Part shown: positions 34,901-44,779 of the stretch, piece by piece
Numbering within the stretch: the stretch's first letter is position 1
How the letters are laid out: each line of letters starts with the position of its first letter
NCBI GenBank assembly: GCA_000004695.1
Contig: CM000152.2
Coordinates: forward strand, 4,160,001 to 4,224,000
DNA: 64,000 nucleotides
Reading direction: 5' to 3'
DNA from: Dictyostelium discoideum
Taxonomy: Eukaryota
Notes under the pieces: generated by a model
The model's database searches: none
What the model was told of the DNA's origin: nothing
Seen by the model: only the letters and a program-made list of their open reading frames with translations
Position numbers and translations under genes: made by a program

Positions 34901-37900
34901 TTAAGCTATTTTATTTGTTTTCATTTGAATTGATTTCTCAAAAGATTTCTTTTGTTTAGTTTTAACGAAATTATATGTAACAGAAATTCCAATAACTGCA
35001 GCAAAACCTACAGCACCAATGATAATACCAGCCAATTGAGCAGATGATAAACCACCACCAGATTTTGAATTACACTTTGAATTACTTGAATCAGAGATAG
35101 GTAGGATATCTAATAATACCGAGAAATCTGGATCAATGATTGAGGAAACAGAATAATGTGGTATATCAATACCAATGAATGATTGTGATTTTGTTGGTGT
35201 TTTAATTGCATTCATTTCATTATCTAAAATTGAATTTGAAATTGAAACTATTCTATTATCAATAATACCTCTTTTTAATAATCTACCATAAAGTGAATGT
35301 TGATCAATTTGAATTTTAATATAATTTGAATCATCACCTGTACTGGTATCACCAAATTCATTAGCTGAACAAATTGAATCATCATTTGAATTAGTTTCAA
35401 GTTGTGCTGACATTACTAATTGTAATCTATTTAATGCTGAATTAAAATTATATTTTGAAAGTTCAATTGTGTATTTAACAGATGAAGGATTCATTTTAAT
35501 TGTTTGTTGAGCAAAAGTAATATTAGATTCTTTATCAAACCATTGTAATGTTACATTAACAATAGTTTGATTATTAATATCATCACCAATTGTTGTTATA
35601 TATTGTTGAGTTTTTTCATTAATTTCTGTTGAAACCCATTTTTCAAATCTATGGGTTTTATAAACTGAATCATCAAATGTAATTTCTCTAATTGCAACTA
35701 AATTAATAATTGATTTAAATGTTATTAATGATATTTCACCATCATCATCATCATTCGATGGAATGTCAATAGATAAGTTTGGTTCAGTAGAGTTTGGCTT
35801 TGGTTGTGGTATAGTTATTACAATAGAACTACAGTCAAGCCCAATATATGGAGATATACAAAAACATCCAGTTGTAACGCATTTACCTTTATTTGGTCCA
35901 CCGCAATTATTTTTACATTCTTGTGGTGAATTTGTTGGTAAAATTGGAGATTGTGTTGGTGGTTCAGTTACTGGTCTTCTTATAGTTGGAATAGCAATCC
36001 ATGGTTTAATTGTATATTCATTTGATAAAATATTACCTTGTGATTTTTTTAATAGAATTGTATATGATCCAGTTGTATATTTAATATTTGAAATTAAGAT
36101 TGCACTTGGATAAATTTTAACTATTTGTTCAGTTTTATTATTTGTTGGTAATTGTGGTGGTGGAGTTTGGATTTTTGAGTAAATAACATTAACACTATCA
36201 ACTCCATCAAAACATCTTCCATAAATCCATAAATCACCACCATTGCTATTCATTTCACTATTTCCAGTAATTAATGGGGTAATATTGGAATAATTTACAT
36301 TAATAGTAAATGGAAAACCGAGTTGACCCAAGTCATATGATGAATAGCCTCTGAAATAATTATAACTATTTACTATACCATAAACTGAAACTATAATTCC
36401 ATATGGATAACCAAAACCAATTGGTAAATCAATTTCACATTTATATGGAACGTTCGTCATATTGGTTGAGAATTTTGTAGCAGTATAAACTCTAGATTTA
36501 CATTCCAATATATCTAAACCAACACTGCTTAAATATACAATTGGATTTGAGTTTGGTACAATAGAACTTTCCAAATCACCAGTTATAAAGGTGATAGTTA
36601 TTTTTCTATCAACGGAGCCAACGTCAATAGATTTAGGTGAAATAGTAAACTCTTTCAATTCTGGAGGAGTGGTATCAAAATCTGGTTCAGATTCGCAAAC
36701 GGAAGTAATAGTATAAATATCAAAATCATCCAAGAAATTAATGAAAGGATTAAATGAATCGTATAAATCTGGAATTCTATCATTACTATATCTTGAATAA
36801 TGACCTATTGTGTCATTTAAAAATACATCAGTTATTACATATGATTGACTTTTACATGGAGAGTATATTAAAAAACCTATTTCATACATTCCAAAAAATG
36901 AATCACCTGAAATTAAATCTGAAGTAGTAAATTCGATTTCATACAAGGATGAGTCAATCAAACCTCTTACAGTAATTTTACCATATTCAAATCCATTATG
37001 TAAATCTTCAATTTCAATATTCCAACCAATAAATTTCCCATAAGTATCTTCTGATGAAATTACATTATAAGTTTTTTGAATTGTTTTAAATATTGGGCCA
37101 TAACTATCCATATCTTTTTATTATTATTTTTTTTTTAAATAAAAATAATTAGAAAATAATTTATTTAAAATTATCCTACAAATAAATAAATAAATTTATA
37201 TACATACTATGTGAAGTTACATTTAATTGAAAAGATTTTGGAAATATTGAATGATCAATTATAAAGTTTTTATATGAAAAACCATAGGTTAATTCACCAT
37301 GATATATATTTGCATCAACATAAAAATCAGATTGGTATAATTGGATTTCTGAATTCCAAACTACTGGAAATGATTTAAGATTATTCTGTAATAATGATTT
37401 CTTTTGGGTAACAAAATTTAATGGTAAATCGATTGGTACTTTATCTTTAAAATTAAAGTAAACTCTATTTGCAACAATTGTATTTGTAACATTAATACTT
37501 TCCAATTCATATGATAATTCATTAAAATTTTCAAATAGTTCCACTAATTTTTTAAAAAATTATTGTTAATAAAACCATATGATTTATTATTATTATTATT
37601 AATGTTATTGTTATTATTATTATTATTGTTATTGTTATTATTATTATTATTATTATTATTATTATTATTATTATTATTATTATTATTATTATTATTATTA
37701 TTATTATTATTATTATTATTATTATTATTATTTTTATTAATTTTGAAAAACTCACCTGATGGAAATGATTGATTTGAAATATAAATAAATGGAATATTAA
37801 TGAATTGGTTTGCTTGATCAAATATACCAAATAATAGTTCAGAATTTAAAATTGAATTTTCAACAATAATTTCAAATATACCATTATATATATCCCCTGT

Positions 37901-42900: not shown

Positions 42901-44779
42901 TAAATCCATTTTTACTTGTAAATTTAATTCTTAAAATAAACAAAGAACCTTCCAATTGTTCTAATTCTATTAATTGAAAAATTGGATTATCTGTCCAGTC
43001 ATCTAAATAATAATAATAATAATAATAAAAAATAATAAATAATAATAATAATAGTTAATAAAATAAAACAAATATCAAAAATAATAAATAAATAATAAAT
43101 AATAATATTTACTTGGAGTTTCTGAAACAATTTGTATTGGATTGGCCTCATCAATTATTAAATTTGGTGAACCTAAACCACCTGATTCTGGAGTTAATAT
43201 TTCAATTGAATAATAATAATTACTATTTTGACCAGATTTAAAGCCAAATGGAGATTTGGTTTTTACTTGATAACTACCATATAATCCAATATTCATGGTT
43301 TTAAAAGTATAATTAGCGCTGACCATATTATATCCTACTAATACAGTGCCACCTAAATTTAAATAATCATTTGTATCCATATTTTTAATTCCATTCAATT
43401 CGATCTCTATTCAATAATAATAATAAAAAATAAAAAAATAATTAGTTTTTACTTTTCCAGGATATTTAAATATATAAATATAAATACTTACCAGATAAAT
43501 AATTAAAATCAAAGGCAATACCACCTTGATTTACTAATGATGGTCCATCTTGTGATAAAAATTGAAGAGAACTACTAAATTGATAGGAATAAAGATTTGC
43601 TGGTAAATGGTAAATGTATGTTGTTGAACTTGTATTTCCATAAATTGGGAACAAATATGACATTTTGATGTTTCCAAAATTAATAGAATTTATTATCGAA
43701 CCATATGCTGATTGAAGTGGTAATAAATTTGAAACAAATGTAACTGCACTACCTAAATTTAAACCACTTATTACAACATTATTAAAATCATTTGGCCATA
43801 ATAAATAATCTGTAATTTTATCATTATTCTCTAAATAGAATTTATTATTATTATTATTTATTATTATTTATTTATTTATTTATTTATTTATTTACTTACG
43901 TGTTAATAAACTATTTGAAAGGGTAAACGAATGAGAAGTTGAAGAATTTCCAATTTGAAATAAAATAATAAATGGTTGTGTAACATCTGGGGTTAAAGTA
44001 GAAATATTAACTTTGAAATAATCTGATTTTGAATCTTCTTCATTTACTACAAGTTTACAATCATAATTTGGACAAGTGAGCCCATAAAAAAAGTATTGGG
44101 CCTTTCCAATTGTGCTATTTAATCCACTAATTTTAATTAATGCTTGATAATTACCAATAAATTCTGTAGGATATACCTTTCCAACTAATGTAATATTTAT
44201 ATCTTCAATTTTAGGTTCTATATATATATATTTATTTATTTATTTTTTTTTTTTTTTTTTTTTTTTTTTTTTTTTTTTTTTTTTTTTTATTTTTTTTTTT
44301 TTTTTTTTTTTTTTTAGATTTAATTATTGTAAAAAATAAAAAAAAGAATAAAATAAAAATTTAGTAAATTATTAATAATAAAAATTAATAATAAATAACA
44401 TACCTAAACAAGTATATGGAAATTCCAAAATGGTTTGATTTAAATTATTATCAATTACTTTTGCAGTATCTGATCCAAATGGGAAACCGGATCCATTAGG
44501 AATTAAGGAATAGATAATAGTTGTTGAGTTTAGGACTTCGTATGGGTTTGGATAAAGTTGATTGGCATATGAAAAGATATAATCCCCACTGATCGAATCA
44601 AAATTTAAATTAAAATCTGTTACCTTGAAATAAAATGTAAATGAGCAACCAAGAAGTGAACCATATCTAATATTACCTTGTGGTGAATAATTTAATTTTT
44701 CTATGATATAACCATTTGTTTTATTCAAAACTATAAATAAAAATAAAAATAAAAATAATAAAAAAATTTTAATATTCAT
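39950..44779 (-). CDS. Paralog B: large type I surface glycoprotein (~1393 aa), tandem duplicate of A; 7 exons: complement(join(39950..42126,42238..42570,42667..43002,43113..43406,43492..43839,43900..44217,44404..44779))
   Basis: Signal peptide exon (MNIKIFLLFLFLFLFIVLN). The intron positions and phases are homologous to A. ORF 39950..42124 forms the last exon with the same EGF-like motif (CKNNCGGANKGICTPNGCICFTPYIGIDCS) and TM (LAGIIIGAVGFAAVIVVSII). The exon 1 boundary is uncertain by +/-1 nt. Confidence 0.65.

Follow-up and report, generated by a model that had tools for sequence, protein, structure and literature searches.

The gene pair described here finds its closest parallels in three described systems of cell-surface proteins, namely the clustered protocadherins of vertebrates, TgrB1/TgrC1 and ComC. 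In the clustered protocadherins the distal ectodomains are diversified, and gene conversion maintains a uniform membrane-proximal part; tgrB1 and tgrC1 lie in divergent orientation. The tgrBC locus has been described as unstable, and in the discoideum clade the ratio of non-synonymous to synonymous divergence (dN/dS) of tgrB1/C1 is below 1 (PMC12745789). ComC is an epidermal growth factor (EGF) protein with a signal peptide and a transmembrane (TM) segment that is restricted to group 4 (PMC4931340), and comC mutants show aberrant aggregation (PMC2873529). The pair lies in a 64,000-nucleotide stretch of Dictyostelium discoideum DNA (contig CM000152.2, positions 4,160,001 to 4,224,000; hereafter the window), which is very AT-rich (~21% G+C). 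It comprises two genes, U (44779-39950) and D (39620-34901), which are co-oriented, head-to-tail, on the minus strand; coordinates below are on this strand unless stated otherwise. The original prediction, made from the sequence of the window, of a tandem pair of paralogues of about 1400 residues in this arrangement stands (1390 and 1362 residues). The best explanation of the locus as a whole, to which we give a probability of about 0.85, is that of an old tandem pair of ComC-like genes whose distal halves have diverged and whose predicted supersandwich domain (SSD) and TM segment are homogenised by gene conversion.

U and D each encode a hydrophobic N-terminal leader, one EGF-like module, one TM segment near the C-terminus and a tail of 24 residues that includes seven Lys/Arg, so that the predicted signal peptide, EGF-like module, single TM and basic tail are all present. 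In Pfam both proteins contain, in this order and all well above the curated cut-offs, DUF7743, DUF7035, DUF7034, DUF7949 (EGF-like) and ComC_SSD. DUF7743 corresponds to exon 5 (E = 1.2e-7 in U and 4.4e-10 in D), and is followed by DUF7035 (E = 1.5e-33 and 2e-36) and DUF7034 (E = 7.8e-35 and 3.8e-36). The EGF-like module (PF25820), whose six cysteines are all invariant in the family alignment, is located directly before the SSD, at 40877-40975 in U (E = 4e-12, exon-7 residues 384-416) and at 35822-35917 in D (E = 3.5e-11, exon-7 residues 399-430). The membrane-adjoining ComC_SSD (PF22933, cut-off 24 bits) scores 54.3 bits in U (E = 1.8e-14; envelope 40807-40169) and 54.6 bits in D (E = 1.5e-14; envelope 35725-35114). 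No EGF_2 or EGF_TEN repeats were found above threshold in Pfam, and no IPT/TIG domain matched at E <= 1 in the N-terminal halves or at E <= 0.1 in exon 7. Two further features that had been expected of the ectodomain fall away: the proteins are not rich in N-glycosylation sites, with 25 (U) and 24 (D) N-X-S/T sequons against 24 and 21 expected from composition, and profile-profile comparison between the exon-encoded segments detected no internal repeats at the sequence level.

A profile search recovered 33 relatives of ~1300-1400 residues with the same architecture, often neighbours of one another, from D. discoideum-clade strains, Dictyostelium citrinum, Dictyostelium dimigraforme, Dictyostelium purpureum, Polysphondylium violaceum, Heterostelium album and Tieghemostelium lacteum. 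The full architecture (DUF7743-DUF7035-DUF7034-DUF8390-DUF7949-SSD) has at least 30 members across all dictyostelid groups sampled. ComC shares with U and D the C-terminal EGF-like module (DUF7949), the SSD, a juxtamembrane cysteine, the TM segment and the basic tail, as well as the signal-plus-TM topology. However, ComC-type proteins carry many teneurin/tenascin-like EGF repeats before this cassette, where U and D have the DUF7743/DUF7035/DUF7034 β-sandwich array instead. In line with this, the alignment with the ComC-type multi-EGF protein P0035 is limited to the EGF-SSD-TM-tail cassette (44% identity over 362 residues). Since ComC-type proteins match in the C-terminal cassette only, sequence comparison places U and D in the ComC-like family, but not as ComC orthologues. 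DDB_G0281203, DDB_G0281205 and DDB_G0281207, the identifiers under which U and D are annotated, were not found mentioned in the papers and supplements searched. The pair is an uncharacterised one in a known family, and public databases already contain both the two genes and their family.

The relationship between the two paralogues changes abruptly along their length. Overall identity is 54%, made up of ~35% amino acid identity over exons 1-6 and 56% over the part of exon 7 that precedes the EGF module, rather than the ~40-55% over most of the ectodomain that was originally estimated. Downstream of this lies a block that the original prediction did not single out, of 609 nucleotides in both genes (40784-40176 in U, 35729-35121 in D), which coincides with the ComC_SSD envelope and is 97-98% identical at the nucleotide level. 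U and D differ at 11 of its 609 positions, as compared to 33% mismatch upstream (98% versus ~66% identity; binomial P ~1e-90), and their synonymous divergence (dS) is 0.03-0.06 in the tract versus 0.4-1.7 elsewhere. The tract is followed by a variable linker of 46 nucleotides with 26 differences, and then by a second, short homogenised block (40053-40129 in U, 34998-35074 in D) that covers the juxtamembrane cysteine motif and most of the TM helix (CNSKSGGGLSSAQLAGIIIGAVGFAAVI) and has one mismatch in 77 nucleotides. The cytoplasmic tail beyond it diverges again, with 45% nucleotide mismatch.

Orthologous loci in three diverged discoideum-clade assemblies (L001, L002 and L003) were compared with the AX4 reference; to judge from their labels, these assemblies seem to represent tropical D. 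discoideum and possible cryptic-species isolates like those in PMC12745789. All three have the U/D pair, with boundaries of identity that coincide in the alignment across the four genomes. Within the tract, U and D of one genome are 0.972-0.979 identical, equal to or above the 0.95-0.98 between orthologues of different genomes. There are no fixed U/D differences in the tract across the four genomes, and at 20 sites a derived base is common to both paralogues of the same genome or genomes; 18 of these are private to one genome (four in AX4, three in L001, five in L002 and six in L003) and two occur in two genomes. By comparison, exon 7 upstream of the tract contains 242 fixed U/D differences and two shared sites. 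The same inversion is seen at silent positions of the tract: orthologues differ by 0.14-0.18 at synonymous or 4-fold sites, and the 4-fold distance is 0.05 between U and D (3 of 66 sites differ) versus 0.16-0.18 between AX4 and L003 orthologues. The shared lineage-specific substitutions, together with the absence of any fixed U/D difference, indicate recurrent gene conversion, independent in each lineage, that homogenises the SSD tract in every lineage examined. The TM segment is also kept near-identical by conversion, separately from the SSD tract.

The same mosaic, a variable N-terminal half joined to a 90-100% identical C-terminal cassette of ~300 residues, is found in other neighbouring pairs of the family. 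It is seen in the adjacent genes ACTFIZ_006278 and ACTFIZ_006279 (P0023/P0024), in two clustered genes of H. album (P0039/P0040), where the cassette is 100% identical in protein sequence and the remainder 22-58%, and in part in P. violaceum (P0030/P0042). This H. album cluster (GL290995.1, 638742-663541; L006) comprises at least four ComC-like genes, which occupy both strands and include one annotated as a 3928-residue fusion of three; the copies have 86-89% identity in their cassette DNA, and the rest is unalignable. These comparisons suggest that the stem is habitually homogenised between adjacent members of the family.

The locus is syntenic in six genomes, four of which carry the pair, whilst in D. 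citrinum and D. dimigraforme the slot is occupied by one gene, between a long upstream open reading frame (ORF) and RNase_T-like, phosphodiesterase-like and Gaa1 genes. This single gene is the orthologue of D, with 63% (D. citrinum) and 53% (D. dimigraforme) identity to it in exons 1-6 and 81% and 71% in exon 7. U, in contrast, is 35% identical in exons 1-6 to D and to the D. citrinum and D. dimigraforme genes alike. D is therefore the ancestral gene at the locus and U a paralogue that, among the genomes compared, is limited to the D. discoideum clade. D. dimigraforme has two copies of the D-type gene on one contig, ~21 gene numbers apart (P0008/P0015, ACTA71_009617/ACTA71_009596), with 96% identity over 1369 residues; this looks like the result of a recent duplication of the whole gene, unconnected with that of U and D.

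The distribution of U could suggest that it is a recent duplicate of D, made within the discoideum clade, whose distal part diverged explosively through neofunctionalisation, leaving the tract as the part that has not yet diverged. The syntenic locus indeed lacks U in D. citrinum and D. dimigraforme, and an exhaustive HMMER search with the N-terminal half of U against 1.84 billion representative proteins recovered nothing beyond its own cluster, the D-type one and a single fragment, with no U orthologue elsewhere. However, silent distances outside the tract are larger between U and D (0.48 at 4-fold sites, NG86 dS 0.76) than between D and its orthologues in D. citrinum (0.25 and 0.30) or D. 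dimigraforme (0.32 and 0.59), that is about twice the first and at least equal to the second. In the tract, the distance from D. citrinum is D-like for U as well as for D (0.28-0.32), and the lineage-specific changes common to both copies could not be produced by an undiverged remnant. A recent origin of U is thus unlikely. Because the U-D silent-site distances exceed those between D and its orthologues, the duplication probably predates the D. citrinum and D. dimigraforme splits, U having been lost or moved in those lineages, and the low U/D identity would reflect an old duplication rather than recent runaway divergence.

U consists of seven exons (44779-44404, 44217-43900, 43830-43492, 43406-43113, 43002-42667, 42570-42238 and 42126-39950) with an open coding sequence of 4173 nucleotides, and its product, a type I membrane glycoprotein of 1390 residues, equals DDB_G0281207 of D. 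discoideum AX4 (Q54U91; also P0005) residue for residue, which identifies the window as chromosomal DNA of AX4. Its six introns (69-186 nucleotides, 4-12% G+C) are all phase 1, with GT donors and AG acceptors throughout. D likewise has seven exons (39620-39290, 39203-38889, 38795-38496, 38421-38137, 38064-37756, 37543-37208 and 37113-34901), encoding 1362 residues, and its six introns are all phase 1 provided that intron 3 takes a GC donor (GCAAGT at 38495). The spacer from the U stop to the D ATG (39621-39949), read from the sequence, is 329 bp, close to the 330 bp first given. Seven exons each and phase-1 introns throughout were correctly anticipated, without the GC donor that D needs; the claim that all six introns are in homologous positions holds for introns 1, 2 and 6, which occupy identical alignment columns, whilst introns 3-5 are shifted only in poorly aligned stretches.

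The GC donor is the point at which our model of D departs from the reference annotation of AX4, which divides D into DDB_G0281205 and DDB_G0281203 at the non-GT intron 3 (38422-38495, GCAAGT...CTATAG, phase 1). DDB_G0281205 (Q54U92, 317 residues) corresponds exactly to D exons 1-3 followed by two read-through codons and a stop ('...YSYNGK'). DDB_G0281203 (Q54U93, 1040 residues) starts at an ATG within intron 3 (38446), and its last 936 residues are common with the D model. It also uses an in-frame intron 4 acceptor 45 nucleotides downstream of the homologue-supported one (38064-38020), and thereby loses 15 conserved residues (PKFELKLNRIEIIKIG becomes R) that align to a conserved strand in U and the orthologues at the exon 4/5 junction. 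By exact look-up, spliced D has no single-protein entry in the protein collection, which is how the split annotation came to light.

If the reference were right, D would be a secreted protein of 317 residues next to a membrane protein of 1040 residues, or else a decaying pseudogene. In favour of this, intron 3 has no GT donor, only two codons precede a stop when it is read through, and it contains an in-frame ATG. However, the frame across intron 3 is kept by the GC donor alone, GCAAGT is the canonical form of a GC-AG donor and, being present also in L001, L002 and L003, is conserved in all four discoideum-clade genomes, AX4 included. The D. citrinum orthologue is a single gene of seven exons, all introns phase 1, encoding 1398 residues, with GTAAGT at the position of D intron 3, and the annotations of the newer genomes (L001-L003) give single genes of 1389-1440 residues. 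The ORF is intact in AX4, L001 and L002 with dN/dS of 0.28-0.39 (in L003, faulty alignment put the projected D exons out of frame at exon 4, and only exon 7 of its D was used). Moreover, DDB_G0281203 on its own would have a type I membrane topology but no signal peptide, and it lacks the conserved exon 4/5 strand. Four Logan fragments (P0011, P0017-19) read through the introns and hence derive from genomic DNA. Two genes, or a pseudogene, at D are accordingly a decidedly improbable reading. The conserved GC donor, the single seven-exon orthologues in D. citrinum and D. dimigraforme and the colinearity with U support D as one seven-exon gene with a GC-AG intron 3, with the upstream exons joined to the rest as the original prediction had them. 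DDB_G0281205 and DDB_G0281203 should then be merged into one gene of 1362 residues, which brings back the conserved 15-residue strand at the exon 4/5 junction.

The original prediction likened the pair to the Tgr allorecognition genes, that is adjacent, polymorphic receptor/ligand genes under diversifying selection. Like TgrB1/TgrC1, U and D are neighbours that encode large surface glycoproteins with a single membrane pass and an Ig-like-fold ectodomain, and their protein evolution outpaces that of their neighbours at dN/dS below 1, which holds in the discoideum clade even for tgrB1/C1. Whole-gene dN/dS between AX4 and L001-L003 is 0.39-0.54 for U and 0.28-0.39 for D, versus 0.07-0.44 (mostly <0.25) for the flanking ORFs, and it rises to 0.59-0.72 and 0.39-0.53 in exons 1-6, by which measure the distal ectodomain is weakly constrained. 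Ratios for single exons range from ~0.1 to 1.4 on a handful of substitutions, so that values around 1 in the distal halves are too noisy to call positive selection, and with all whole-gene values below 1 across strains positive selection is not demonstrated. The proposed rapid diversification therefore holds in so far as the pair evolves faster than its neighbours, but is not accompanied by excess polymorphism: dS between AX4 and L001-L003 is 0.08-0.15 for U/D and 0.04-0.17 for the flanking ORFs, and nucleotide identity is ~91-93% for both. Unlike the Tgr genes, U and D are head-to-tail and lack IPT/TIG domains even at permissive thresholds; domain searches thus yield an EGF-like module and ComC-like membership instead. 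Copy number and synteny are stable, with the same two genes and the same neighbours in AX4 and L001-L003, whereas the tgrBC locus is described as unstable (PMC12745789), and part of the ectodomain is homogenised rather than diversified. A Tgr-like allorecognition pair is consequently very improbable, and the tempting analogy with Tgr-type kin recognition is removed. Extreme purifying selection on the SSD after an old duplication, in the absence of gene conversion, is scarcely credible, for although no other part of the family is as well conserved as the SSD, which also has the lowest orthologue dN/dS (0.14-0.29), the paralogues are near-identical at silent sites too, where orthologues are less alike, and the 20 shared derived substitutions would have to be parallel mutations, which the site patterns refute.

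Structure prediction is consistent with a modular ectodomain on a common stem. The AlphaFold2 model of the EGF module and SSD (mean pLDDT 82, pTM 0.81) contains an all-β domain of ~210 residues (pLDDT 85-96, model residues ~73-283) that matches the conversion tract and resembles the YidC periplasmic domain (P1) in fold. On this model the SSD is predicted to be a supersandwich domain with a galactose-mutarotase-like fold. Matches of the family profile to solved structures in the PDB were at chance level only. The likeness to GLMP, with 8% sequence identity to the SSD, is at the level of the fold only; this type of fold is also common to many glycoside hydrolase/phosphorylase accessory domains as well as YidC P1, and implies neither homology nor a partner. 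A GLMP-like fold adjoining the membrane is a lead for a shared stem interaction, not evidence of one. The N-terminal model (residues 24-769) is all-β, with breaks between strand blocks close to the exon junctions, and Foldseek matches it to multi-domain Ig, FN3 and macroglobulin ectodomains (VEGFR-1, PirB, KIT, C5 and alpha-2-macroglobulin). One phase-1 exon per β-sandwich module in exons 1-6 is plausible from this model, which is only suggestive on the point.

Several points weigh against the reading of an old, conversion-homogenised pair of surface receptors. The NG86 and 4-fold ages of the U/D split depend on a small number of sites that are in part saturated, confidence in the N-terminal model is low (mean pLDDT 60, <50 in exon 4), and both the splicing of the GC intron of D and the adhesion or signalling role of U and D are inferred. 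The homogenisation may equally be a neutral by-product of local identity with no adaptive meaning, since conversion sustains itself where identity is high, and the common tract boundaries may mark only the places where homology runs out. Gene conversion between tandem duplicates is, in any case, a well-known and classical process.

The surroundings of the pair contain further features. A tRNA gene lies at 34528-34623 on the plus strand, ~280 bp beyond the D stop (Rfam RF00005, 49 bits, full-length model match); it is 96 nucleotides long and probably intron-bearing, and was not detected by ARAGORN on bacterial settings. On the other side, 5' of U, are ORFs at 50663-53017 (plus strand) that encode a family-3 GPCR (G protein-coupled receptor)-like protein (7tm_3, E = 9e-31) and a long ORF at 53401-56700 that has no Pfam match. 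The region 5' of U is the least conserved part of the locus (82-87% nucleotide identity); the gene ranges of the U orthologues there extend ~1.8 kb 5' of the conserved ATG (10001-11809 in L001, 10001-11890 in L002), with the same product length. Elsewhere in the window, three tandem ORFs of 208 residues (19327-19953, 22117-22743 and 24950-25576, all on the minus strand), which have no Pfam match, are contained in repeat units of ~2.8 kb. Two are identical and the third 98% identical at the protein level, whilst the non-coding parts of the units are only 82-89% identical. This array is a second case in the window of recent duplication or homogenisation.

Taken together, each protein consists of a signal peptide, a long distal part modelled as a string of β-sandwich domains (roughly one for each of exons 1-6), DUF7035, DUF7034, the EGF-like module, the SSD, the TM segment and the basic tail. 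The distal halves diverge under weak constraint, whilst recurrent non-reciprocal recombination between U and D keeps the SSD tract and, separately, the TM segment nearly identical. By analogy with ComC, U and D may be cell-surface receptors in adhesion or communication. The constant SSD-TM stem might then serve a function common to both paralogues, for example binding to a common membrane partner or mutual association, and the variable distal domains might confer different ligand specificities.

The likeness to clustered protocadherins lies in the combination of diverse distal ectodomains with a membrane-proximal part made uniform by conversion. It does not extend to folds or lineage, which are unrelated, nor to shared constant exons, which U and D do not have, and there are only two genes here, although Heterostelium has larger clusters; no self-recognition function of the protocadherin kind is claimed for U and D. 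A wider proposal, on balance doubtful, is that clustered ComC-like genes across Dictyostelia are receptors with a variable head and a constant stem, in which selection, and not mechanics alone, confines conversion to the EGF-SSD-TM part because every paralogue of a cluster has to dock by its stem to a common membrane partner or to another paralogue, and the freely evolving distal β-sandwich heads provide the specificities. If true, such a system would be an amoebozoan analogue of the clustered protocadherins. For the pair itself, the setting is a large, uncharacterised and dictyostelid-specific family of surface proteins, in which a homogenised SSD-TM cassette set against a diverging distal ectodomain suggests where the shared functions (the stem) and the specific functions (the head) may reside.

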